Of a DNA stretch of 64,000 bases, positions 25,242-59,592 are shown in pieces (within the stretch, counting starts at the first letter, position 1; each line of letters starts with the position of its first letter). The notes under the pieces were generated by a model that searched no databases, was not told where the DNA came from, and saw only the letters and a program-made list of their open reading frames with translations. The position numbers were made by a program, and so were the translations under genes. The stretch is from the NCBI RefSeq assembly GCF_054482595.1, contig NZ_CM137008.1. One strand, written 5' to 3'.

Positions 25242-27233
25242 ATGTCCTCACGTAAAGAGCTTGCCAATGCTATTCGTGCGCTGAGCATGGACGCAGTACA
25301 GAAAGCCAAATCCGGTCACCCGGGTGCCCCTATGGGTATGGCTGACATTGCCGAAGTCCTGTGGCGTGATTTCCTGAAACACAACCCGCAGAATCCGTCC
25401 TGGGCTGACCGTGACCGCTTCGTGCTGTCCAACGGCCACGGCTCCATGCTGATCTACAGCCTGCTGCACCTCACCGGTTACGATCTGCCGATGGAAGAAC
25501 TGAAAAACTTCCGTCAGCTGCACTCTAAAACTCCGGGCCACCCGGAAGTGGGTTACACCGCTGGTGTGGAAACCACCACCGGTCCGCTGGGGCAGGGTAT
25601 TGCCAACGCAGTAGGTATGGCGATTGCAGAAAAAACGCTGGCGGCGCAGTTTAACCGTCCGGGCCACGACATTGTCGACCACTACACCTACGCCTTCATG
25701 GGCGACGGCTGCATGATGGAAGGCATCTCCCACGAAGTTTGCTCTCTGGCGGGTACGCTGAAGCTGGGTAAACTGATTGCGTTCTACGATGACAACGGTA
25801 TTTCTATCGATGGTCACGTTGAAGGCTGGTTCACCGACGACACCGCAATGCGTTTCGAAGCTTACGGCTGGCACGTTATTCGCGACATCGACGGTCATGA
25901 CGCAGCATCCATCAAACGCGCAGTAGAAGAAGCGCGCGCAGTGACTGACAAACCGTCCCTGCTGATGTGCAAAACCATCATCGGTTTCGGTTCCCCGAAC
26001 AAAGCCGGTACTCACGACTCCCACGGTGCGCCGCTGGGTGATGCAGAAATCGCTCTGACCCGCGAACAGCTGGGCTGGAAATACGCGCCGTTCGAAATCC
26101 CGTCTGAAATCTATGCGCAGTGGGATGCGAAAGAAGCAGGCCAGGCGAAAGAATCTGCATGGAACGAGAAATTCGCTGCTTACGCGAAAGCTTATCCGCA
26201 AGAAGCCGCTGAATTTACCCGCCGTATGAAAGGCGAAATGCCGTCTGACTTCGACGCAAAAGCGAAAGAGTTCATTGCTAAACTGCAGGCTAATCCGGCG
26301 AAAATCGCCAGCCGTAAAGCGTCTCAGAATGCTATTGAAGCGTTCGGCCCGCTGTTGCCGGAATTCCTCGGCGGCTCCGCTGACCTGGCACCGTCTAACC
26401 TGACCCTGTGGTCTGGTTCTAAAGCAATCAACGAAGATGCTGCGGGTAACTACATCCACTACGGTGTTCGCGAGTTCGGTATGACCGCGATTGCTAACGG
26501 TATCTCCCTGCACGGTGGCTTCCTGCCGTACACATCCACCTTCCTGATGTTTGTCGAATACGCACGTAACGCCGTACGTATGGCTGCGCTGATGAAACAG
26601 CGTCAGGTGATGGTTTACACCCACGACTCCATCGGTCTGGGCGAAGACGGCCCGACTCACCAGCCGGTTGAGCAGGTCGCTTCTCTGCGCGTGACCCCGA
26701 ACATGTCTACATGGCGTCCGTGTGACCAGGTTGAATCTGCAGTAGCGTGGAAATACGGCGTTGAGCGTCAGGACGGCCCGACCGCGCTGATCCTCTCCCG
26801 TCAGAACCTGGCGCAGCAGGAACGTACTGAAGAGCAGCTGGCAAACATCGCGCGCGGTGGTTATGTGCTGAAAGACTGTGCCGGCCAGCCGGAACTGATC
26901 TTCATCGCTACTGGTTCTGAAGTTGAACTGGCTGTCGCTGCATACGAAAAACTGACTGCCGAAGGCGTGAAAGCGCGCGTGGTTTCCATGCCGTCTACCG
27001 ACGCATTCGACAAGCAGGACGCGGCTTACCGTGAGTCTGTACTGCCTAAAGCGGTTACTGCACGCGTTGCGGTGGAAGCGGGTATTGCTGACTACTGGTA
27101 CAAGTATGTTGGCCTGAATGGCGCTATCATCGGTATGACCACCTTCGGTGAGTCAGCTCCGGCAGAGTTGCTGTTCGAAGAGTTCGGCTTCACCGTCGAC
27201 AACGTCGTTGCGAAAGCAAAAGAACTGCTGTAA
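25242..27233 (+). CDS. tktA: Transketolase 1
   Basis: ORF 25212..27233; start at [41 protein letters not shown]... giving 663 aa. Confidence 0.97.
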
Positions 27234-27248
27234 TTAGCATTTCGGGTA

Positions 27249-27277
27249 AAAAGGTCGCTTCGGCGACCTTTTTTATT
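27249..27277 (+). terminator. Intrinsic terminator of tktA
   Basis: aaaaggtcgc-ttcg-gcgacctttt followed by a T run. Confidence 0.8.
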
Positions 27278-27546
27278 ACCTTGATATGTCCGTTTGCGGA
27301 CAAGCAATAGATAAAGCGTGTTGTAGATCACAAATATTTATATGCAATAAATATCAATTATGTAATATGCATCACGATATGCGTGTTGACATTTGTTGTT
27401 ATATCTATAACTCAATGTTATATAAGAAATTAATAATTCACTGTTTTCAAAACACCGGTTTCCCTGCTCAATTGCTTTCATTAAACCGCACGAGTATTTT
27501 ATTTTTACCGCCGGACGGTACCCTAAAAATAAAATAAGGATAATTT

Positions 27547-27990
27547 ATGCGGCTTAGTGATTATTTTCCAGAATCATCAATCTCAGTTATACATTCAGCA
27601 AAAGATTGGCAGGAAGCTATCGATTTCTCGATGGTATCATTGTTGGATAAAAACTATATCAGCGAGATTTACATTCAGGCAATTAAAGATTCCACCATTA
27701 ACAATGGCCCTTATTATATTCTCGCACCAGGCGTGGCAATGCCTCATGCGCGACCGGAATGTGGGGCGCTTAAAACCGGGATGTCTTTGACATTACTTGA
27801 ACAAGGTGTTTATTTTCCGGGGAATGACGAACCAATTAAATTACTCATCGGACTCTCTGCTGCCGATGCCGATTCGCACATTGGCGCTATTCAGGCGTTA
27901 AGTGAATTACTGTGCGAAGAAGAAATACTCGAACAACTCTTAACAGCATCATCAGAAAAACAATTAGCGGACATTATCAGCCGCGGATAA
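27547..27990 (+). CDS. cmtB: PTS mannitol-family EIIA component (cryptic)
   Basis: 147-aa ORF matching CmtB; preceded by a 270-bp strongly AT-rich region. Confidence 0.9.
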   Translation: MRLSDYFPESSISVIHSAKDWQEAIDFSMVSLLDKNYISEIYIQAIKDSTINNGPYYILAPGVAMPHARPECGALKTGMSLTLLEQGVYFPGNDEPIKLLIGLSAADADSHIGAIQALSELLCEEEILEQLLTASSEKQLADIISRG

Positions 27991-28017
27991 TTACTCTCTC
28001 CTCTACAGGATAATATT

Positions 28018-29406
28018 ATGGAAAACAAGTCTGCTCGTGCAAAGGTCCAGGCTTTTGGGGGCTTTTTGACTGCAATGGTCATCCCCAATATTGGTGCTTT
28101 TATTGCCTGGGGTTTTATTACTGCGTTATTTATTCCCACCGGTTGGCTGCCTAACGAACATTTCGCCAAAATTGTCGGCCCGATGATTACCTATTTATTG
28201 CCCGTGATGATTGGTTCTACCGGTGGTCATCTGGTCGGCGGTAAACGCGGCGCGGTCATGGGCGGAATAGGTACTATTGGTGTGATCGTCGGCGCAGAGA
28301 TCCCGATGTTCCTTGGCTCAATGATTATGGGGCCGCTCGGTGGTCTGGTCATAAAATATGTTGATAAGGCACTGGAAAAACGCATACCTGCCGGTTTTGA
28401 GATGGTTATCAATAACTTCTCATTAGGTATCGCGGGGATGCTCCTTTGTCTGCTGGGTTTTGAAGTGATCGGCCCGGCGGTGTTAATTGCCAATACTTTC
28501 GTCAAAGAGTGTATCGAGGCGCTGGTACATGCGGGTTATCTGCCTCTGCTGTCAGTCATCAATGAACCGGCGAAAGTGCTTTTCCTTAATAATGCGATCG
28601 ATCAGGGCGTCTATTATCCGCTGGGAATGCAACAGGCTTCGGTTAACGGTAAATCCATCTTCTTTATGGTGGCCTCTAACCCAGGTCCGGGCCTGGGGCT
28701 GCTGCTGGCGTTTACCTTGTTTGGTAAAGGGATGAGTAAACGTTCTGCGCCCGGGGCGATGATTATTCACTTCCTCGGTGGGATCCACGAACTGTATTTC
28801 CCATATGTGCTGATGAAGCCGCTGACTATTATTGCCATGATTGCGGGCGGTATGTCTGGCACCTGGATGTTTAACTTACTGGACGGTGGTCTGGTGGCTG
28901 GCCCAAGTCCGGGGTCTATCTTTGCTTACCTGGCGCTGACGCCGAAAGGTTCGTTCCTGGCGACAATTGCCGGTGTTACGGTAGGTACCCTGGTGTCCTT
29001 TGCTATCACTTCGCTGATACTGAAGATGGAAAAAACGGTGGAAACGGAGAGCGAAGATGAGTTTGCTAAGTCAGCCAATGCGGTTAAGGCGATGAAACAA
29101 GAGGGTGCATTCTCGTTAAGCAGGGTTAAGCGTATCGCCTTTGTTTGCGATGCGGGGATGGGCTCCAGTGCGATGGGCGCGACCACCTTCCGTAAACGCC
29201 TGGAAAAAGCGGGGCTGGCAATTGAAGTAAAACATTACGCCATAGAAAACGTGCCTGCGGATGCGGATATCGTCGTTACTCATGCCAGTCTGGAAGGGCG
29301 CGTGAAACGTGTGACGGATAAACCACTGATATTGATTAATAACTATATTGGCGATCCAAAACTCGACACTTTATTTAATCAATTAACCGCCGAACATAAA
29401 CACTGA
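28018..29406 (+). CDS. cmtA: PTS mannitol-family EIICB component (cryptic)
   Basis: 462-aa ORF: hydrophobic EIIC domain plus C-terminal EIIB (FVCDAGMGSSAMG). Confidence 0.92.
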   Translation: MENKSARAKVQAFGGFLTAMVIPNIGAFIAWGFITALFIPTGWLPNEHFAKIVGPMITYLLPVMIGSTGGHLVGGKRGAVMGGIGTIGVIVGAEIPMFLGSMIMGPLGGLVIKYVDKALEKRIPAGFEMVINNFSLGIAGMLLCLLGFEVIGPAVLIANTFVKECIEALVHAGYLPLLSVINEPAKVLFLNNAIDQGVYYPLGMQQASVNGKSIFFMVASNPGPGLGLLLAFTLFGKGMSKRSAPGAMIIHFLGGIHELYFPYVLMKPLTIIAMIAGGMSGTWMFNLLDGGLVAGPSPGSIFAYLALTPKGSFLATIAGVTVGTLVSFAITSLILKMEKTVETESEDEFAKSANAVKAMKQEGAFSLSRVKRIAFVCDAGMGSSAMGATTFRKRLEKAGLAIEVKHYAIENVPADADIVVTHASLEGRVKRVTDKPLILINNYIGDPKLDTLFNQLTAEHKH

Positions 29407-29420
29407 TTACAGAGATAAAA

Positions 29421-30698
29421 ATGAAAACCAAAGTTGCTGCTATTTATGGCAAGCGGGATGTCCGTCTGCGCGAATTTGAACTGCCAGAAATTACCGATAA
29501 TGAATTACTGGTGAGTGTGATTTCTGACAGCGTCTGTTTATCCACCTGGAAAGCGGCGTTACTCGGTAGTGAACATAAACGCGTACCCGACGATTTAGAA
29601 AATCATCCGGTCATTACCGGGCATGAATGTGCCGGGGTTATTGTCGAAGTGGGTAAAAATCTCACTGGCAAATATAAAAAAGGCCAGCGTTTTGTATTGC
29701 AACCGGCGATGGGGTTACCAAGCGGATATTCAGCGGGCTACAGCTACGAATATTTTGGCGGCAATGCCACTTATATGATTATTCCCGAAATCGCCATTAA
29801 TTTGGGCTGCGTATTACCGTATCACGGCTCTTATTTTGCTGCGGCGTCGCTGGCAGAGCCTATGTGCTGCATTATTGGTGCTTATCATGCCAATTATCAC
29901 ACCACGCAATATGTTTATGAGCATCGCATGGGCGTCAAACCTGGCGGCAATATTGCACTGCTGGCGTGTGCAGGTCCGATGGGCATTGGCGCTATCGATT
30001 ACGCCATTAACGGCGGCATACAACCGTCGCGGGTGGTGGTGGTCGATATCGACGACAAACGTCTGGCGCAGGTACAGAAGCTGCTGCCGGTGGAACTGGC
30101 GGCCAGTAAAGGCATTGAGCTGGTGTATGTGAATACCAAAGGGATGAGCGATCCTGTCCAGATGCTGCGGGCGCTGACAGGAGATGCCGGGTTCGATGAC
30201 ATTTTTGTTTATGCGGCGGTGCCTGCTGTCGTTGAGATGGCTGATGAATTACTGGCGGAAGATGGCTGTCTGAACTTCTTTGCCGGGCCGACGGATAAAA
30301 ACTTCAAAGTGCCGTTTAATTTCTACAACGTTCATTACAACAGCACGCACGTCGTCGGTACATCCGGCGGTTCAACGGACGACATGAAAGAGGCGATTGC
30401 CCTTAGCGCCACTAGGCAGTTACAGCCGTCGTTTATGGTGACCCATATCGGTGGCCTGGATGCGGTGCCAGAAACCGTGCTCAATCTGCCGGATATCCCT
30501 GGCGGTAAAAAACTCATTTATAACGGCGTGACCATGCCGCTCACTGCCATTGCCGATTTTGCCGAAAAAGGCAAAACCGATCCGCTGTTTAAAGAGTTGG
30601 CGCGGCTGGTTGAGGAAACGCACGGCATCTGGAATGAACAGGCCGAGAAATATCTGCTGGCACAATTTGGCGTTGATATCGGGGAGGCCGCGCAATGA
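29421..30698 (+). CDS. yggP: Zinc-type alcohol/polyol dehydrogenase family protein YggP
   Basis: 425-aa ORF of medium-chain dehydrogenase type (GHECAGVIVEVG; GAGPMGIGAIDYA Rossmann motif). Confidence 0.9.
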   Translation: MKTKVAAIYGKRDVRLREFELPEITDNELLVSVISDSVCLSTWKAALLGSEHKRVPDDLENHPVITGHECAGVIVEVGKNLTGKYKKGQRFVLQPAMGLPSGYSAGYSYEYFGGNATYMIIPEIAINLGCVLPYHGSYFAAASLAEPMCCIIGAYHANYHTTQYVYEHRMGVKPGGNIALLACAGPMGIGAIDYAINGGIQPSRVVVVDIDDKRLAQVQKLLPVELAASKGIELVYVNTKGMSDPVQMLRALTGDAGFDDIFVYAAVPAVVEMADELLAEDGCLNFFAGPTDKNFKVPFNFYNVHYNSTHVVGTSGGSTDDMKEAIALSATRQLQPSFMVTHIGGLDAVPETVLNLPDIPGGKKLIYNGVTMPLTAIADFAEKGKTDPLFKELARLVEETHGIWNEQAEKYLLAQFGVDIGEAAQ

Positions 30699-31660
30699 TG
30701 TCCCTGGCGTGGCCATTATTTCGCGTTACGGAACAGGCAGCGTTGGCTGCCTGGCCGCAAACCGGATGTGGCGACAAAAATAAAATTGATGGCCTGGCGG
30801 TCACCGCGATGCGCCAGGCATTAAACGACGTCGCTTTTCGTGGACGAGTGGTTATCGGCGAAGGAGAAATTGACCATGCGCCGATGCTGTGGATTGGCGA
30901 AAAGGTGGGCAAAGGCGATGGGCCAGAAGTCGATATCGCGGTTGACCCGATCGAAGGCACGCGGATGGTAGCGATGGGGCAGAGCAATGCGTTGGCGGTC
31001 ATGGCTTTCGCCCCTCGAGATAGCCTGTTACATGCGCCCGATATGTATATGAAAAAGCTGGTTGTTAATCGACTGGCTGCCGGGGCGATTGATCTGTCTT
31101 TGCCTCTGGCGGACAACTTGCGTAACGTGGCGCGGGCGTTAGGTAAACCGCTGGACAAGCTGCGCATGGTTACGCTGGATAAACCGCGTCTGAGTGCCGC
31201 GATTGAAGAAGCAACACAGCTGGGCGTGAAGGTTTTTGCCCTGCCGGATGGCGATGTTGCCGCCAGCGTGCTGACCTGCTGGCAGGATAATCCTTACGAT
31301 GTGATGTACACCATCGGCGGTGCGCCGGAAGGCGTGATTTCTGCCTGTGCCGTTAAAGCATTAGGCGGGGATATGCAGGCCGAGCTGATTGACTTTTGTC
31401 AGGCTAAAGGGGATTACACGGAAAATCGGCAGATTGCAGAGCAGGAGCGCAAGCGTTGCAAGGCAATGGGCGTTGACGTTAACCGTGTGTACTCGCTCGA
31501 TGAACTGGTGAGGGGGAACGATATCCTCTTTAGCGCTACGGGCGTGACGGGCGGTGAGCTGGTGAACGGTATCCAACAGACGGCGAATGGGGTGCGGACG
31601 CAGACATTACTGATCGGCGGCGCGGACCAAACGTGTAATATAATAGACTCCCTGCATTGA
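30695..31660 (+). CDS. yggF: Class II (GlpX-like) fructose-1,6-bisphosphatase YggF
   Basis: 321-aa ORF matching the GlpX paralog YggF; 4-bp overlap with yggP. Confidence 0.9.
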   Translation: MMSLAWPLFRVTEQAALAAWPQTGCGDKNKIDGLAVTAMRQALNDVAFRGRVVIGEGEIDHAPMLWIGEKVGKGDGPEVDIAVDPIEGTRMVAMGQSNALAVMAFAPRDSLLHAPDMYMKKLVVNRLAAGAIDLSLPLADNLRNVARALGKPLDKLRMVTLDKPRLSAAIEEATQLGVKVFALPDGDVAASVLTCWQDNPYDVMYTIGGAPEGVISACAVKALGGDMQAELIDFCQAKGDYTENRQIAEQERKRCKAMGVDVNRVYSLDELVRGNDILFSATGVTGGELVNGIQQTANGVRTQTLLIGGADQTCNIIDSLH

Positions 31661-31681
31661 TGGTGATCTATCGGAAGACCA

Positions 31682-32191
31682 ATGGCGACGCTGACAGAAG
31701 ATGATGTGCTTGAGCAACTGGATGCACAGGACAATTTATTTTCATTTATGAAAACTGCGCATTCTATTTTGCTCCAGGGGATACGCCAGTTTCTGCCGTC
31801 GCTGTTTGTCGATAACGATGAAGAGATCGTGGAATATGCAGTGAAGCCGTTACTCGCCCAAAGCGGCCCGCTTGACGATATTGATGTTGCGCTGCGTTTG
31901 ATTTATGCGCTGGGGAAAATGGATAAATGGCTGTACGCCGATATCACGCATTTTTCCCAGTTCTGGCATTACCTGAACGAACAGGATGAAGCGCCCGGAT
32001 TTGCCGATGACATGACCTGGGATTTTATCAGCAACGTCAATAGCATAACCCGCAATGCGATGCTCTATGACGCGTTAAAAGCGATGAAGTTCGCTGATTT
32101 CGCCGTCTGGTCAGAGGCGCGTTTTAGCGGGATGGTCAAAACGGCGCTGACGCTGGCAGTAACGACCACCTTAAAGGAATTAACGCCGTGA
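31682..32191 (+). CDS. fumE: MtlR-family protein YggD (annotated as fumarase E in K-12)
   Basis: 169-aa ORF matching YggD (MATLTEDDVLEQLDAQDNLFSFMKTAHSILLQG...). Confidence 0.85.
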   Translation: MATLTEDDVLEQLDAQDNLFSFMKTAHSILLQGIRQFLPSLFVDNDEEIVEYAVKPLLAQSGPLDDIDVALRLIYALGKMDKWLYADITHFSQFWHYLNEQDEAPGFADDMTWDFISNVNSITRNAMLYDALKAMKFADFAVWSEARFSGMVKTALTLAVTTTLKELTP

Positions 32192-32901
32192 AAATTGAAT
32201 TAACGGTGAATGGGCTGAACGTGCAAGCGCAGTACCATGATGAAGAGATAGAACGCGTGCATAAACCGTTGCTGCGTATGCTGGCGGCCTTACAGACGGT
32301 AAATCCGCAGCGCCGAACCGTGGTTTTTCTTTGCGCTCCGCCGGGGACGGGTAAATCTACCCTAACCACCTTCTGGGCATATCTCGCGCAACAAGACCCG
32401 GAGCTGCCCGCTATTCAGACGCTCCCGATGGATGGTTTTCACCATTACAATAGCTGGCTGGATGCGCATCAATTGCGCCCCTTCAAAGGCGCACCAGAGA
32501 CATTTGACGTAGCGAAACTGGCGGAAAATCTGCGCCAGGTCGTGGAAGGGGATTGTACGTGGCCGCAGTATGATCGACAAAAGCATGATCCTGTTGAAGA
32601 TGCGTTGCACGTTACCGCACCACTCGTCATCGTCGAAGGAAACTGGCTATTACTGGATGATGAAAAGTGGCTGGAGTTGGCATCTTTCTGCGATTTTTCT
32701 ATTTTTATTCATGCACCTGCTCAAATTCTGCGGGAGCGCTTGATTAGTCGTAAAATTGCGGGAGGATTATCGCGGCAAGAAGCCGAAGCATTTTATGCCC
32801 GAACCGATGGCCCCAATGTCGAGCGTGTGCTGATGAATAGTCGTCAGGCCAATCTGATAGTAGAGATGACTGAAGAAGGCCGGTATCACTTCACAAGCTG
32901 A
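32188..32901 (+). CDS. yggC: P-loop nucleoside/sugar kinase-like protein YggC (GTG start)
   Basis: 237-aa ORF with Walker A (CAPPGTGKST); 4-bp overlap with the upstream gene. Confidence 0.88.
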   Translation: MKIELTVNGLNVQAQYHDEEIERVHKPLLRMLAALQTVNPQRRTVVFLCAPPGTGKSTLTTFWAYLAQQDPELPAIQTLPMDGFHHYNSWLDAHQLRPFKGAPETFDVAKLAENLRQVVEGDCTWPQYDRQKHDPVEDALHVTAPLVIVEGNWLLLDDEKWLELASFCDFSIFIHAPAQILRERLISRKIAGGLSRQEAEAFYARTDGPNVERVLMNSRQANLIVEMTEEGRYHFTS

Positions 32902-33185
32902 CAATTTATTCCAGTTATTGCAGGGTTATTATTACGCCAGCCTGGAATAAAGCTTCCCACAAAAGGGGATAAAAGTGTGATGTGAGTCAGATAAATGTCT
33001 TCTTTGACTGGACAATCATTCCTTTTATTCCACGTTTCGCTTATCCTAGCTGAAGCGTTTCAGTCGATTAAATGTTCGACAATTAACCAATCAGTCGCAG
33101 TTTGCGACAGGTAAGGTTTCCCCGGACGATTTGCTGGATTACTCTGTCTGGCAAATTTGCTCAGGGAAAACCTTGCAGGAGATCT

Positions 33186-34205
33186 ATGACCGTACGCGTA
33201 GCGATAAATGGCTTCGGTCGCATCGGGCGTAATGTGGTTCGTGCTTTGTATGAATCCGGACGCCGGGCGGAAATTACCGTGGTGGCAATCAACGAACTGG
33301 CGGATGCTGCGGGCATGGCGCATTTGTTGAAATACGACACCAGCCATGGCCGTTTTGCATGGGAAGTACGACAGGAACGCGATCAACTTTTTGTTGGTGA
33401 TGACGCCATCCGCGTATTGCATGAACGTTCACTGCAATCGCTCCCCTGGCGTGAACTTGGCGTTGATGTAGTCCTCGACTGCACCGGCGTATATGGCTCC
33501 CGCGAGCATGGCGAAGCGCACATTGCCGCCGGGGCTAAAAAAGTGCTCTTTTCACATCCTGGCAGTAACGATCTCGACGCGACCGTTGTTTACGGCGTCA
33601 ATCAGGATCAACTTCGTTCGGAACACCGCATCGTTTCTAACGCTTCCTGTACCACGAATTGCATAATTCCCGTCATCAAATTGTTAGATGATGCGTACGG
33701 TATTGAGTCCGGCACTGTGACCACAATTCACTCCGCCATGCACGATCAACAGGTTATTGATGCATACCATCCTGACCTGCGTCGCACCCGGGCAGCCAGC
33801 CAGTCGATCATTCCGGTCGATACTAAACTGGCCGCCGGTATCACACGATTTTTTCCGCAATTTAACGATCGCTTTGAAGCGATTGCGGTACGTGTGCCAA
33901 CCATAAATGTGACGGCAATCGATTTAAGCGTGACGGTGAAGAAACCTGTAAAAGCCAATGAAGTCAACCTGTTGCTGCAAAAAGCAGCACAAGGTGCATT
34001 TCATGGTATAGTTGACTATACGGAATTGCCGTTGGTCTCTGTAGATTTTAACCACGATCCGCACAGTGCCATTGTCGATGGCACCCAAACCCGGGTCAGT
34101 GGCGCACACCTGATCAAAACGTTGGTCTGGTGCGATAACGAATGGGGCTTTGCTAACCGAATGCTCGACACGACGTTAGCTATGGCTACTGTTGCTTTCA
34201 GGTAA
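33186..34205 (+). CDS. epd: D-erythrose-4-phosphate dehydrogenase
   Basis: ORF 33102..34205; start at [27 protein letters not shown]... giving 339 aa, GAPDH family. Confidence 0.95.
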
Positions 34206-57942: not shown

Positions 57943-59145
57943 ATGCAAAGTGTTGATGTAGCCATTGTTGGCGGCGGCATGGTGGGGCTGGCGGTTGCCT
58001 GCGGCTTACAGGGTAGCGGCTTACGCGTTGCCGTACTGGAGCAGCGCGTACCGGAACCTCTGGCGGCGGATGCTCCACCACAACTGCGCGTTTCGGCTAT
58101 CAATGCCGCCAGCGAAAAATTACTCACCCGTCTTGGTGTCTGGCAGGACATTATCTCCCGTAGAGCCAGTTGCTATCACGGTATGGAAGTGTGGGACAAA
58201 GACAGTTTTGGTCACATTTCGTTTGACGATCAAAGCATGGGCTATAGCCATCTTGGGCATATCGTTGAAAACTCAGTGATTCACTACGCGCTGTGGAACA
58301 AAGCGCATCAGTCGTCAGATATCACTCTGTTGGCCCCCGCAGAATTACAGCAGGTCGCCTGGGGAGAAAACGAAACCTTCCTGACGCTGAAAGATGGCAG
58401 TATGTTAACGGCGCGTCTGGTGATTGGCGCGGACGGCGCTAATTCCTGGTTGCGCAACAAAGCCGATATTCCGCTGACTTTCTGGGATTATCAGCATCAC
58501 GCGCTGGTAGCGACCATACGCACGGAAGAACCGCATGAAGCTGTGGCGCGGCAGGTTTTCCACGGCGAAGGCATTCTGGCCTTTTTGCCGCTTAGCGATC
58601 CGCATCTTTGCTCGATTGTCTGGTCCCTATCGCCAGAGGAAGCGCAGCGGATGCAGCAGGCAGGGGAAGACGAATTTAATCGCGCGTTAAATATCGCTTT
58701 TGATAATCGCCTTGGCTTATGCAAGGTTGAGAGCGAGCGTCAGGTGTTCCCGCTGACGGGGCGTTATGCGCGCCAGTTTGCCGCACACCGTCTGGCGCTG
58801 GTGGGCGACGCCGCGCATACCATTCACCCGCTGGCGGGGCAGGGCGTTAATCTCGGCTTTATGGACGCCGCAGAGCTGATTGCTGAACTGAAACGGTTGC
58901 ATCGTCAGGGTAAAGACATCGGGCAGTACATTTACCTGCGCCGCTATGAACGTAGCCGCAAGCACAGCGCGGCGCTGATGCTGGCTGGTATGCAGGGATT
59001 CCGCGATCTGTTTTCCGGTACCAATCCGGCGAAAAAACTGCTGCGTGATATTGGTTTGAAACTGGCCGACACGCTTCCTGGCGTTAAGCCACAACTTATC
59101 CGTCAGGCAATGGGATTAAACGATTTGCCTGAATGGCTGCGTTAA
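57943..59145 (+). CDS. ubiI: 2-octaprenylphenol hydroxylase UbiI (VisC)
   Basis: 400-aa ORF with FAD motif (VAIVGGGMVGLAVA). Confidence 0.95.
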   Translation: MQSVDVAIVGGGMVGLAVACGLQGSGLRVAVLEQRVPEPLAADAPPQLRVSAINAASEKLLTRLGVWQDIISRRASCYHGMEVWDKDSFGHISFDDQSMGYSHLGHIVENSVIHYALWNKAHQSSDITLLAPAELQQVAWGENETFLTLKDGSMLTARLVIGADGANSWLRNKADIPLTFWDYQHHALVATIRTEEPHEAVARQVFHGEGILAFLPLSDPHLCSIVWSLSPEEAQRMQQAGEDEFNRALNIAFDNRLGLCKVESERQVFPLTGRYARQFAAHRLALVGDAAHTIHPLAGQGVNLGFMDAAELIAELKRLHRQGKDIGQYIYLRRYERSRKHSAALMLAGMQGFRDLFSGTNPAKKLLRDIGLKLADTLPGVKPQLIRQAMGLNDLPEWLR

Positions 59146-59187
59146 AAATTTCTCTTCTGCTGTTTATTTGATACGCATCACACTTTC

Positions 59188-59216
59188 ATCTCCCGGTTTT
59201 TTCGCCGGGAGATTTT
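59188..59216 (+). terminator. Putative terminator after ubiI
   Basis: atctcccgg-N8-ccgggagat followed by TTT. Confidence 0.45.
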
Positions 59217-59229
59217 CCTCATTTGAAAT

Positions 59230-59592
59230 AAACTAATTTCACCTCCGTTTTCGCATTATATTTTCTAATGCCATGATTTTTTGATTTAGTGTTTTTTGAC
59301 ATTTTTTTAGCTCTTAATATTGTCTTATTCAAATTGACTTTCTCATCACATCATCTTTGTATAGAAACTGGTGTGTTTTTTGGTTTTTTATTCTGTCGCG
59401 ATTTTTGCATTTTTTAACCATAAGCTAATGTGATGATCAATTTTACCTTATGGTTAACAGTCTGTTTCGGTGGTAAGTTCAGGCAAAAGAGAACGATTGC
59501 GTTGGGGACCGGGAGTGGCTCCGATGCTGGGTTTTGTGGTGATAATTTCACCATGAAAAAGTTGTCAGCCCCGCTTATTCAATGAGGACAAG
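59230..59592 (+). promoter_or_regulatory. gcvTHP promoter / upstream regulatory region
   Basis: About 360-bp AT-rich region with long T tracts upstream of gcvT; known target region for GcvA, Lrp, CRP and PurR; individual sites not resolved. Confidence 0.5.

Follow-up and report, generated by a model that had tools for sequence, protein, structure and literature searches.

The mannitol system of E. coli is encoded by the canonical mtlA, mtlD and mtlR genes. MtlR regulates this system by contact with HPr, and cmt came to be called cryptic because mtlA mutants of E. coli are mannitol-negative. The cmt products are currently annotated as 'mannitol-specific PTS enzyme IICB/IIA'. The cluster cmtB-cmtA-yggP-yggF-fumE(yggD)-yggC belongs to the standard annotation of K-12 and is not a new observation: RefSeq gives the same six genes for K-12 and for the strain identical to the window (the whole stretch of 64,000 nucleotides analysed here, which is E. 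coli DNA and a 100% match to strain XH990), and of 5426 complete E. coli genomes, 5387 contain the block with at least 80% query coverage, so that it was already known. A preliminary description held that the substrate is still not established, and the searchable literature indeed names none for the cassette; a SEED-based paper goes no further than a predicted 'sugar/polyol kinase, in progress' for yggC. Here, we argue that the six genes probably constitute a single PTS-linked catabolic module.

Organization of the locus

All six genes, together with the upstream tktA (ending at 27233), are called as open reading frames on the + strand. They are cmtB (27547-27990), encoding a PTS enzyme IIA of 147 aa; cmtA (28018-29406), a mannitol-type PTS enzyme IICB of 462 aa; yggP (29421-30698), a Zn-dependent MDR dehydrogenase of 425 aa; yggF (30695-31660), a class II (GlpX-type) fructose-1,6-bisphosphatase of 321 aa; yggD or fumE (31682-32191), an MtlR-family protein of 169 aa; and yggC (32188-32901), a P-loop kinase of 237 aa with a GTG start. 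From cmtB to yggC, the successive spacers measure 27, 14, -4 (ATGA), 21 and -4 (GTGA) nt, and this junction arithmetic bears out the six co-directional genes and two 4-bp overlaps that had been read from the sequence at the outset.

Upstream, the leader is bounded by the intrinsic terminator of tktA (27248-27279, + strand), in which perfect 11-nt arms (27248-27258 and 27263-27273) form an 11-bp stem around a TTCG loop, followed by a T-run. The RNA fold has an energy of -19.4 kcal/mol (z = -4.65), and most Enterobacteriaceae leaders carry a GC hairpin and T-run at this position. The preliminary description placed the start of the unit at 27277, which is the end of this terminator. Within the region, five terminator-like matches were found against 6.9 expected by chance. 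The downstream boundary is the 284-nt yggC-epd spacer (32902-33185, + strand), which contains the epd promoter region and in which neither a terminator scan nor an inverted-repeat search revealed a canonical terminator; this is where B2 E. coli and other genera carry an inserted ABC/ECF transporter cluster.

Protein components

CmtB matches EIIA_2 (PF00359) and the NF007358 equivalog (322.8 bits, cutoff 192), and shares 28% identity with the IIA domain of MtlA, the phospho-His position being aligned. CmtA combines EIIC and IIB domains (PF02378 and PF02302), scores 480 bits against the mtlA-subfamily model TIGR00851 (cutoff 468) and shares 53% identity with residues 6-471 of MtlA, including the conserved phospho-Cys motif CDAGMGSSAMG. 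To judge by their sequences, CmtB (IIA) and CmtA (IICB) make up a mannitol-type PTS permease with its phosphorylation motifs intact.

YggP carries ADH_N and ADH_zinc_N domains (PF08240 and PF00107), and is 46% identical over 417 aa to the L-sorbose-1-phosphate reductase SorE from a canonical sor operon of K. pneumoniae. The family alignment shows no variation at C39, H68, E69, E146 and D209; the conserved positions comprise the Zn ligands and the Asp with which strand 2 of the dinucleotide fold ends. YggP is a Zn-dependent dehydrogenase of the SorE lineage (ketose-1-phosphate/polyol-phosphate oxidoreductase), forming a sister clade of SorE. YggF scores 587 bits against the GlpX equivalog TIGR00330 (cutoff 259) and is 59% identical to E. 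coli GlpX; FBPase activity of YggF is credited to Brown et al. 2009, and its PDB relatives include dual FBP/sedoheptulose-1,7-bisphosphatases.

YggD belongs to the MtlR family (PF05068), with 36% identity to MtlR over 105 aa, and crystal structure 3c8g is that of a near-identical Shigella protein. It produced no peaks, and so no DNA binding, in ChIP-exo; its present name is fumarase E, and in vitro fumarase activity is reported for it. YggC falls in the PRK09270 nucleoside/nucleotide-kinase family, with a PRK/uridine-kinase/PanK-like fold, scores 507 bits against NF006742 (cutoff 402) and has a Walker A motif, APPGTGKST, at residues 50-58 of the translation. Its nearest solved structure is 3c8u, a 'fructokinase' of the FrcK type (E = 1e-21); experimentally, FrcK is not the S. 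meliloti fructokinase, and S. meliloti FrcK mutants show altered regulation of mannitol transport and halved fructose uptake. The gene identities first assigned are correct, with domains and RefSeq/K-12 annotation in accord, and profile matches agree with the domain content given (PTS IIA/IICB, Zn dehydrogenase, GlpX-like, MtlR-like and P-loop kinase).

Leader and expression

The cmtB leader (27278-27546, + strand) is a 269-nt regulatory region of 31.6% G+C, compared with a window mean of 51.5% (s.d. 5.2%); only 0.44% of 269-nt windows are equally AT-rich, and these are confined to three places in the 64 kb. No Rfam family matches the leader. In B2-phylogroup E. coli, the proximal approximately 80 nt are near-identical, while the distal two-thirds cannot be aligned. 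A CRP ChIP-seq site, CGTGTTGTAGATCACA (27317-27332, + strand), occurs once in the window and is the exact reverse complement of the cmtB site of ETEC H10407; its ATCACAAAT half is kept in about 20 Enterobacterales species. A candidate second CRP-like site, TGTAATATGCATCACG (27361-27376, + strand), lies 44 bp downstream of the first, and has two mismatches to TGTGA-N6-TCACA; matches of this quality are not significant alone (24 found versus 25 expected), but the position is conserved and the Limnobaculum version is a perfect TGTGA-N6-TCACA. A candidate sigma-70 promoter (27472-27500, + strand; TTGCTT, 17 nt, TATTTT), read from the sequence and not called by the consensus scan, falls within the most conserved part of the leader; TTG(A/C)TTTCA and GTATTTTATTTTTA are the blocks best conserved across genera. 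A perfect 13-nt inverted repeat, TATTTTATTTTTA / TAAAAATAAAATA (27495-27536, + strand), surrounds a small GC hairpin and ends at the cmtB Shine-Dalgarno sequence. It is conserved in Escherichia, Citrobacter and Salmonella and degenerate elsewhere, gave no consensus RNA structure, and is a candidate operator or promoter element.

Published reporter assays have shown that the cmt promoter is activated by CRP and induced approximately sixfold by uridine, which was singled out as a strong inducer when a cmtA-gfp fusion was screened against 198 carbon sources, mannitol included. Deletion of cmtA raises the tobramycin MIC, and deletion of yggF slows fermentative growth on glycerol. CRP binding and activation, uridine induction and these deletion phenotypes together indicate that the genes are expressed at a functional level. 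Thus, of the earlier suggestion of an AT-rich leader typical of a silenced promoter, the AT-richness stands and the silencing is not supported, the promoter being CRP-activated and uridine-inducible; no H-NS evidence was found for this leader. Gene decay is ruled out by dN/dS values of 0.02-0.16 for all six genes, similar to those of tktA and epd.

We infer that all six E. coli genes are co-transcribed as a single unit. Databases list a separate yggDC transcription unit, and CRP SELEX gives yggF as a separate target. The intragenic sigma-54 binding site IS35, CTGGCGGCAATATTGCA (29941-29957, + strand), reported in a sigma-54 ChIP study and matched exactly in the window, lies within yggP and precedes yggF by 738 nt.

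The cassette across genomes

The six genes occur in identical order in 20 Enterobacterales species. In Escherichia, Citrobacter, Enterobacter, Superficieibacter and Buttiauxella, the cassette is flanked by tktA and epd; Hafnia (where a menF-like and a menD-like gene flank it), Serratia, Providencia and Limnobaculum carry it in other, unrelated surroundings, and several Vibrionaceae carry it next to tal-tkt. Rahnella carries it beside a canonical mtlA-mtlD-mtlR operon, and E. coli likewise has both systems. The cassette is conserved, is maintained by selection and has moved between genomes. Conserved order in different contexts, tight spacers and terminator matches at or below chance uphold the original proposal of one PTS-linked pathway module; the observation behind that proposal is confirmed, and its interpretation is partly supported.

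YggP and its partner genes were surveyed at 79 species loci. YggC accompanies YggP at 55 of these, and the 55 YggP proteins form one clade; in the sister clade, YggC is replaced by a 1-phosphofructokinase, a PfkB kinase that passes the equivalog cutoff for this enzyme (319 bits versus 292). Among the 58 operon runs combining a mtl-type IICB with a YggP-family gene, 56 have exactly one kinase, of YggC or PfkB type, and never both. FruK-like and YggP-like genes of some Clostridia follow mtlA-mtlR-mtlF, in the usual mtlD slot. YggP proteins of the two clades are only approximately 55% identical, so the clades could act on different substrates; some YggP-like genes have no PTS beside them and instead neighbour a 2-oxoacid dehydrogenase complex, and the wider family is therefore not restricted to PTS pathways. 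No operon run has two of GlpX (present at 20 loci), a YcdX-like PHP phosphoesterase (13 loci, in Vibrionaceae) and a PPi-dependent phosphofructokinase. The phosphatase step is dispensable, because the Rahnella and Budvicia cassettes have none; most Firmicute cassettes also lack one. In Anaerostipes, a class II FBP aldolase follows yggC-yggP; this aldolase and the mutual exclusion of the three enzymes favour a bisphosphate as the output of the pathway. yggD and yggC are always adjacent in Proteobacteria, while in Firmicutes YggC lies between IIA and IICB, with no MtlR-like partner. Regulators of the MtlR-like, PRD and DeoR types are mutually exclusive across cassettes, which fits a regulatory role for YggD.

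Proposed pathway and alternatives

As a whole, these results are best explained, on balance, by one sugar-alcohol catabolic cassette whose steps can be proposed from comparative genomics. Its specific route, through ketose-1-phosphate and a 1,6-bisphosphate, is put forward more tentatively. The CmtBA permease would deliver polyol-1-phosphate, and YggP would oxidize the carbon adjoining the phosphate (the SorE reaction reversed) to give a ketose-1-phosphate, possibly fructose-1-phosphate. YggC, as a non-homologous analogue of 1-phosphofructokinase, would then make the ketose-1,6-bisphosphate, which could enter glycolysis through class II aldolase. YggF may channel some of this bisphosphate towards biosynthesis as fructose-6-phosphate; without such a split in flux, the pairing of kinase and bisphosphatase within an operon could amount to a futile cycle. 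YggD would regulate by protein contacts with the PTS and not via a DNA operator of its own, a role that leaves its in vitro fumarase activity unexplained. As for the sugar alcohol transported, a hexitol distinct from mannitol, the usual substrate, is most likely.

It is unlikely that the genes instead perform a 'phosphate-walk' from a pentitol or heptitol into the pentose-phosphate pathway, whereby YggP would convert polyol-1-phosphate to ketose-1-phosphate, YggC would form a 1,5- or 1,7-bisphosphate, and YggF would remove the 1-phosphate to leave xylulose-5-phosphate, ribulose-5-phosphate or sedoheptulose-7-phosphate for transketolase/transaldolase. Such a route needs exactly a kinase and a 1-phosphatase and removes the futile-cycle problem; it also accords with the proximity of tktA (Enterobacteriaceae) or tal-tkt (several Vibrionaceae) and with the dual-specificity PDB relatives of YggF, and sedoheptulose phosphates are further substrates of some PPi-phosphofructokinases. 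However, it makes essential the phosphatase that is missing from Rahnella, Budvicia and most Firmicute cassettes, proximity to tkt may reflect nothing beyond inherited synteny, and the 1-phosphofructokinase-model kinase and Anaerostipes aldolase both point to hexose chemistry; the FBPase activity credited to YggF also counts against it. Quite unlikely, too, is a second mannitol system, redundant and poorly expressed, with CmtBA yielding mannitol-1-phosphate, YggP serving as MtlD to give fructose-6-phosphate, and YggF, YggD and YggC accessory or unrelated. The likeness of CmtA to MtlA, above the mtlA-subfamily cutoffs, the MtlR-like YggD and the clostridial YggP-like gene in the mtlD position all favour it, yet YggP is unrelated to MtlD and its SorE lineage acts next to the phosphate, the near-obligate kinase is needless on a direct route to fructose-6-phosphate, canonical mtlADR is kept as well in Rahnella and E. 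coli, and the inducer screen singled out uridine with mannitol among its sources.

The 4-bp overlap and constant proteobacterial adjacency of yggD and yggC, the FrcK results and the lack of ChIP-exo binding by YggD would suit a regulatory YggC that, with YggD, senses or modifies a PTS component or sugar-phosphate signal, metabolism being left to the PTS and YggP; since Firmicute YggC has no MtlR-like partner, and never occurs alongside the metabolic 1-phosphofructokinase, an exclusion unexpected of a pure regulator, we regard this as very unlikely. Least probable is that E. coli has no functional unit here, merely neighbours with separate jobs and promoters: a vestigial permease (CmtBA), a spare gluconeogenic FBPase (YggF), a minor fumarase (YggD) and an unrelated nucleotide-type kinase (YggC). 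The separate yggDC unit, the yggF SELEX target, the sigma-54 site upstream of yggF, the YggD fumarase activity and a yggF phenotype on glycerol, in which no polyol is involved, are consistent with such independence. Against it, and in favour of a single catabolic cassette, gene order is kept at unrelated genomic sites, the strict linkage of YggP with YggC extends from Proteobacteria to Firmicutes, the two overlaps are translationally coupled, and non-orthologous genes replace components within the same cassette frame.

Organization and conservation of the module

The region 27200–33000 is 100% identical to strain XH990, which identifies the window as Escherichia coli. RefSeq labels six genes between tktA and epd: cmtB, cmtA, yggP, a glpX-like gene (yggF), fumE (yggD) and yggC, in an order identical to that of K-12 MG1655. 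By ORF calling and junction arithmetic, all six lie on the + strand. cmtB (27547–27990) is followed after 27 nt by cmtA (28018–29406) and, after a further 14 nt, by yggP (29421–30698), which overlaps yggF (30695–31660) by 4 nt (ATGA); beyond a 21 nt gap, yggD (31682–32191) overlaps yggC (32188–32901, GTG start) by another 4 nt (GTGA), and 284 nt separate yggC from epd. These coordinates and junctions agree in every detail with the preliminary description of six co-directional genes with two 4-bp overlaps, and its reading of the six as one module is upheld. A search for terminators inside the module returned 5 matches in total, fewer than the 6.9 expected by chance; two terminator-like matches within cmtA were rejected for having no T-rich tail.

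Of 5426 complete E. coli genomes, 5425 match this region, and in 5387 the match extends over at least 80% of it. The dN/dS ratios of all six genes, estimated against E. albertii, Citrobacter, Salmonella arizonae, Superficieibacter and Buttiauxella, are 0.02–0.16 and fall within the range of the flanking tktA and epd; the six genes are maintained by selection. Found in about 99% of complete genomes and under purifying selection, the module counts among the 'y-gene' blocks of the E. coli core genome that are still only partly characterised. Literature searches named no substrate, as the preliminary description had anticipated in leaving it open. Gene content, gene order, the label 'cryptic mannitol' and the missing substrate all belong to textbook K-12 annotation and are hence already known; new here are a specific pathway hypothesis that can be tested and a candidate function for the YggC/FrcK family of kinases.

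Proteins encoded by the module

CmtA is a mannitol-type IIC–IIB protein (PF02378 and PF02302) that scores above the cutoffs of two mtlA-subfamily models (TIGR00851, 480 bits against 468.4; NF011663, 592.7 against 589). It is 53% identical to MtlA and retains an intact phospho-Cys motif (CDAGMGSSAMG), with CmtA VCDAGMGSSAMG opposite MtlA ACDAGMGSSAMG. CmtB is an EIIA_2 protein with 28% identity to the IIA domain of MtlA, and the phospho-His position is aligned (VAMPHARPE in CmtB, IAVPHGTVE in MtlA). The pair belongs to the mannitol-type enzymes II both by domains and cutoffs and by its phosphorylatable Cys and His residues; no transport data for CmtBA were found in the literature. The module resembles the E. 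coli mtlA–mtlD–mtlR operon in its IIC–IIB permease, EIIA_2-type IIA, MtlR-fold protein and CRP control. Unlike that operon, it encodes its IIA as a separate and divergent protein, for which an ascorbate-type IIA model scores above the MtlA IIA domain, and in place of MtlD it has a SorE-type Zn dehydrogenase, a P-loop kinase and a fructose-bisphosphatase (FBPase). E. coli carries both.

YggP is a Zn-dependent medium-chain dehydrogenase (PF08240 and PF00107) that lacks an equivalog model and a close relative among solved structures. Its Zn ligands C39, H68, E69 and E146 do not vary among 10 diverse homologues, and SorE has the same residues, along with a basic H-K-R/K motif that YggP carries at residues 52–54. 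A protein search returned sorE-annotated genes on plasmid records at 45–46% identity over 98% of YggP; the Klebsiella match sits in a canonical sorC-sorD-sorFBAM-sorE operon. In pairwise comparison, YggP and Klebsiella SorE are 46% identical (E = 8e-133). YggP is a full-length SorE homologue with the architecture of the SorE subfamily (ADH_N and ADH_zinc_N with the Zn ligands). Plain orthology with sorE was rejected: at only 46% identity, SorE lies outside the YggP clade and the two related clades described below, and the context of YggP is a mtl-type PTS with YggC, not sorFBAM with sorD. SorE is paired with a mannose-family PTS and an SDR glucitol-6-phosphate dehydrogenase and has no kinase partner, unlike the YggP clade.

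SorE reduces the keto group beside the 1-phosphate of L-sorbose-1-phosphate, giving glucitol-6-phosphate. YggP, by the same logic, would be expected to convert a ketose-1-phosphate into a polyol phosphate or the reverse. Asp209, which is invariant and lies where the second strand of the dinucleotide fold ends, hints at NAD+ and at oxidation; the presumed direction is oxidative, in contrast to the reductive SorE. The literature searched contained no assay of YggP. A second DNA match to yggP occurs in more than half of E. coli genomes, XH990 included, and is presumably the sorE of the sor operon. In strain EC2001 (H26 among the E. coli genome matches), PGAP names a 141-nt yggP remnant 'L-sorbose 1-phosphate reductase', so annotation pipelines already conflate yggP and sorE; YggP orthologues carry the same label in several sources.

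YggF is a GlpX equivalog (TIGR00330, 587.3 bits against 259.3), 59% identical to E. coli GlpX and matched by GlpX structures in the PDB at E = 4e-112; its PDB relatives include dual FBP/SBPases. Later papers credit the FBPase activity and kinetics of YggF to Brown et al. 2009, and deletion of yggF slows fermentative growth on glycerol. Like GlpX of the glpFKX operon, YggF is a class II fructose-1,6-bisphosphatase; unlike GlpX, it is encoded in a PTS cassette, not with glycerol genes, and its place can be taken in other species by a PHP phosphoesterase or a PPi-dependent phosphofructokinase (PPi-PFK), or be empty.

YggD has the MtlR fold over its full length (PF05068, 180.5 bits, residues 5–167). 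A near-identical Shigella protein has been solved (PDB 3c8g), and YggD is 36% identical to E. coli MtlR over 105 aa. Published ChIP-exo gave zero peaks and no DNA binding, and the present name of the protein is fumarase E.

YggC is a P-loop kinase of the PRK/uridine-kinase/PanK type. It matches the PRK09270 model (NF006742, 507 bits against 402) and has a Walker A motif, APPGTGKST, at residues 50–58 of the translation. Among solved structures it is closest to the FrcK-type 'fructokinase' 3c8u (E = 1e-21), with PanK at E = 1e-10. It has zero PfkB matches and falls outside the 1-phosphofructokinase fold and TIGR03828. Genetic work has excluded FrcK as the S. meliloti fructokinase, and in a comparative-genomics paper yggC appears only as a predicted 'sugar/polyol kinase, in progress'. 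FrcK, encoded in the Sinorhizobium meliloti frcBCAK operon, shares with YggC its kinase family and its place in a sugar or polyol transport operon; unlike YggC, it is tied to a fructose ABC transporter rather than a PTS and has no YggP-type dehydrogenase partner.

Variants of the cassette across genera

YggP is highly conserved, with homologues about 65% identical in both Vibrio and Lachnospiraceae. Scanning a single genome per species gave 80 loci, which were mapped by tblastn and ORF clustering. Enterobacterales carry all six genes (variant A), mostly between tktA and epd; the order is identical in Hafnia and Serratia, in unrelated genomic contexts. Rahnella and Budvicia lack yggF (variant B). 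Vibrionaceae have a five-gene version, cmtB-cmtA-yggP-yggD-yggC, with a YcdX-like PHP-domain phosphoesterase (variant C). In Firmicutes, a PRD regulator accompanies IIA, yggC, IICB and yggP, sometimes with a PPi-PFK (variant D); the Lacrimispora locus, for example, reads IIA-yggC-IICB-yggP, with a PRD regulator and a phosphofructokinase. Anaerostipes has a DeoR regulator and yggC-yggP followed by a class II FBP aldolase (variant E). Certain Clostridia encode a mtlA-type IICB, an MtlR-type PRD regulator, IIA, a 1-phosphofructokinase and a YggP-like protein, without yggC (variant F), and in other Clostridia and a Lentisphaeria MAG a YggP-like gene lies beside a 2-oxoacid dehydrogenase complex, without a PTS (variant G). 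Family models confirmed the 1-phosphofructokinase that displaces YggC (TIGR03828, 319 bits against 292), the class II aldolase (374 against 343) and the PPi-PFK.

YggC was found at 55 of 79 loci, and the 55 YggP proteins encoded there make up a single clade. The FruK-linked and the dehydrogenase-complex-linked YggP-like proteins form sister clades at about 55% identity. Among 58 operon runs with a mtl-type IICB and a YggP-family gene, 56 contain exactly one kinase, either YggC or FruK-like, and never both. The kinase swap is, however, seen between sister clades and not inside one clade, which limits the argument. No two of GlpX, PHP and PPi-PFK occur together in any operon run. MtlR-like, PRD and DeoR regulators never co-occur across the cassettes, an exclusivity that supports a regulatory role for YggD only indirectly.

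Several Vibrionaceae cassettes (loci L001, L002, L035, L047, L052 and L057) adjoin tal-tkt or tkt; the adjacency to tkt in Vibrionaceae and Enterobacteriaceae may have been inherited as synteny or may reflect a functional tie with the pentose-phosphate pathway. At the variant G loci L068, L070, L076, L079, L081, L083 and L087, the YggP-like proteins are 55–58% identical and the complex is a fused-E1/E2/E3 2-oxoacid (acetoin-type) dehydrogenase with a sorbitol-6-phosphate-dehydrogenase-like SDR alongside; some of these loci also encode a 430-aa PHP-like protein. This is apparently a different pathway context. The neighbours of the Anaerostipes yggC-yggP-aldolase operon (gene clusters c37–c45) appeared by eye to be unrelated housekeeping genes.

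A proposed pathway and its alternatives

The permease motifs, the enzyme families, the FBPase activity of YggF and control by CRP can be taken as established. In the pathway that we propose, CmtBA would deliver a polyol-1-phosphate, which YggP would oxidise at C2 to a ketose-1-phosphate. YggC, as a non-homologous stand-in for 1-phosphofructokinase, would convert the ketose-1-phosphate to a 1,6-bisphosphate, to be cleaved by class II aldolase. YggF, or elsewhere the PHP protein or PPi-PFK, would supply fructose-6-phosphate for biosynthesis when carbon enters below that node, although some cassettes have no phosphatase at all, which limits the model. MtlR makes protein contact with HPr, and YggD would similarly modulate expression through protein contacts. 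The rarer hexitols are obvious candidates for the substrate.

The route resembles that of fruBKA, in which fructose-1-phosphate is converted by 1-phosphofructokinase to FBP: a PTS-derived 1-phosphate becomes a 1,6-bisphosphate, and a true 1-phosphofructokinase holds the kinase slot in the sister-clade cassettes. In contrast to FruK, YggC lacks the PfkB/ribokinase fold, and fructose-1-phosphate is a putative substrate; YggC may work like a 1-phosphofructokinase though it is outside that family. We tentatively suggest that YggC could be the founding characterised member of a group of P-loop ketose-1-phosphate kinases that replace the PfkB enzyme FruK, giving a functional assignment to the widespread FrcK/YggC kinases. 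Together with YggP, it might then define an undescribed PTS route from hexitol through hexitol-1-phosphate and ketose-1-phosphate to ketose-1,6-bisphosphate, serving a dietary or algal sugar alcohol missed by standard carbon-source panels. The strict pairing of YggP with YggC, the replacement of YggC by 1-phosphofructokinase in a sister clade and the three interchangeable enzymes leading from fructose-bisphosphate to fructose-6-phosphate form a comparative pattern that makes an open question addressable by a few cheap experiments. If correct, the proposal would provide a function for the FrcK/YggC kinase family and a new entry of sugar alcohols into glycolysis; the kinase hypothesis would count as a good result in enzymology without amounting to a new type of system or genetic element.

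Other readings were weighed against this pathway. The likeness of CmtBA to MtlA raises the thought of a redundant mannitol system, which is improbable: in Rahnella (loci L031 and L032, 8129–17783), the five-gene cassette without yggF lies directly upstream of a canonical mtlA-mtlD-mtlR operon whose proteins are 77–83% identical to those of E. coli, so the cassette is no substitute for the mannitol system. A pentitol or heptitol could instead undergo a 'phosphate walk' into the pentose-phosphate pathway, in keeping with the adjacency of cassettes to tkt and tal and with the dual FBP/SBPase relatives of YggF; this too is unlikely, the same adjacency being open to explanation as inherited synteny. 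A regulatory function for YggC, in place of the kinase step proposed here, is regarded as very unlikely; its slot is held elsewhere by a true 1-phosphofructokinase, and the two never occur together. Least probable is that the module has no functional unity at all; the same six genes recur in order in Hafnia and Serratia.

The leader and transcriptional control

The leader between the tktA terminator and cmtB (27278–27546) has 31.6% G+C against a window mean of 51.5%, within the lowest 0.44% of windows of the same size. The preliminary description of an AT-rich leader is borne out, with a length of 269 nt and a start that coincides with the end of the tktA terminator hairpin. The leader has the AT-rich upstream region of the H-NS-silenced class. 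Its interpretation as a silenced promoter is nonetheless incorrect or, at the least, unproven: the published record of measurable CRP-dependent activity and of deletion phenotypes speaks against full silencing. CRP ChIP-seq in ETEC assigned the site TGTGATCTACAACACG to cmtB, activation by CRP was reported from genomic SELEX and lacZ fusions, and a 2025 study placed a cmtA-gfp fusion under CRP control. In that study, a screen of 198 carbon sources, mannitol among them, identified uridine as a strong inducer of the cmtA promoter (about 6-fold), and common polyols were not prominent as inducers. It also found that deletion of cmtA raises the tobramycin MIC; recent work ties cmtA to aminoglycoside uptake. 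Literature searches found no H-NS binding at the cmtB leader; the sole H-NS flag met, in one table, concerns the yggC–epd spacer, elsewhere than the leader.

Comparison of the leaders of about 20 Enterobacterales species by footprinting revealed several conserved blocks. The first (27317–27332) is the reverse complement of TGTGATCTACAACACG, which occurs once in the window. A second, CRP-like block (27361–27376) has a perfect consensus in Limnobaculum. CRP consensus matches in the window are not enriched (24 against 25 expected), so the motif alone proves nothing: the first site is accepted because it coincides with the published ChIP-seq site, and the second is a candidate only. A TTGAC block (27386–27391) follows. 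The most conserved stretch (27472–27507) comprises TTG(A/C)TTTCA and GTATTTTATTTTTA with a 17 nt spacing, which could be a −35/−10 pair; a sigma-70 consensus scan returned zero sites in the leader (7 overall against 9.4 in shuffles), and the promoter candidates in the leader are based on cross-species conservation only. A further block, GTACCCTAAAAATAAAATA, lies directly before the Shine–Dalgarno sequence.

In E. coli, the most conserved stretch and the block before the Shine–Dalgarno sequence together form a perfect 13-nt inverted repeat that folds with z = −2.1. The idea of a conserved 5′-UTR hairpin was dropped, as RNAalifold on 12 genera gave zero consensus pairs for the leader; the conservation of the repeat is one of sequence, and it more probably serves as a promoter or operator than as an RNA element. 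An Rfam search of 27000–33400 at permissive E-values detected no riboswitch, RAT or leader RNA family, and only two sub-threshold matches, both on the tktA terminator. An 83-aa ATG ORF on the + strand (27286–27537) fills the leader; it matches no Pfam family, lies within the stretch that is unalignable in B2 strains and is most likely a chance ORF, treated as spurious. In the B2 phylogroup, the leader shares only the proximal ~80 nt and short islands (a CRP half-site and the TTGAC block).

The leaders of Hafnia, Serratia and Vibrio are long and AT-rich, with CRP-like sites and TGACAT-type motifs; no common operator could be established across the three. By eye, three tandem copies of a ATGACATAAAT(G)-type motif were seen in the Hafnia alvei leader (locus L004, 6940–6995), one ATGACATTAAT in that of Serratia and GTTGACATTTG at 27385–27395 in E. 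coli, which may represent a shared operator motif.

Besides the leader, only two stretches of the window are equally AT-rich: ~17647–18076, with a perfect CRP consensus TGTGAAGCAAATCACA at 17769–17784, and ~59090–59526, with a one-mismatch CRP site at 59167–59182. The yggC–epd spacer contains a one-mismatch CRP-like site, TGTGATGTGAGTCAGA (32976–32991), which is probably part of epd-pgk-fbaA regulation. A published intragenic sigma-54 binding site, CTGGCGGCAATATTGCA, lies on the sense strand inside yggP (29941–29957), 738 nt upstream of yggF.

Variation within E. coli

Two haplotypes of the module's surroundings were observed. In the K-12/XH990 type, 313 nt separate tktA from cmtB and 284 nt separate yggC from epd (window 27234–27470 and 32832–33185). 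In the B2 type, exemplified by JJ1887 (locus L008, 906–1282 and 6609–7768) and Nissle (L009), a prohibitin-family gene lies between tktA and cmtB, the distal leader is unalignable, and convergent ABC/ECF-transporter genes overlap the 3′ end of yggC. That transporter cluster also sits between yggC and epd in Citrobacter, E. albertii and Superficieibacter, so the K-12 haplotype looks like a deletion.

Within E. coli, the end genes diverge most: CmtB and YggC show 89% and 92% amino acid identity against 99% for the middle genes (in comparison with loci L012 and L013). Values of dS against E. albertii are likewise uneven, at 0.05 for yggD, 0.34 for yggP and yggF, 0.53 for cmtA and 0.78 for yggC, and this pattern suggests a recombination mosaic. 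Individual strains carry lesions: in Nissle 1917 (L009, 4427–4742) an internal deletion has left yggF a pseudogene, and, among the E. coli genome matches H3 and H12, an IS30-family element interrupts the module region in strain ET490 and an IS1-associated deletion has removed most of the module in strain PSS-10.
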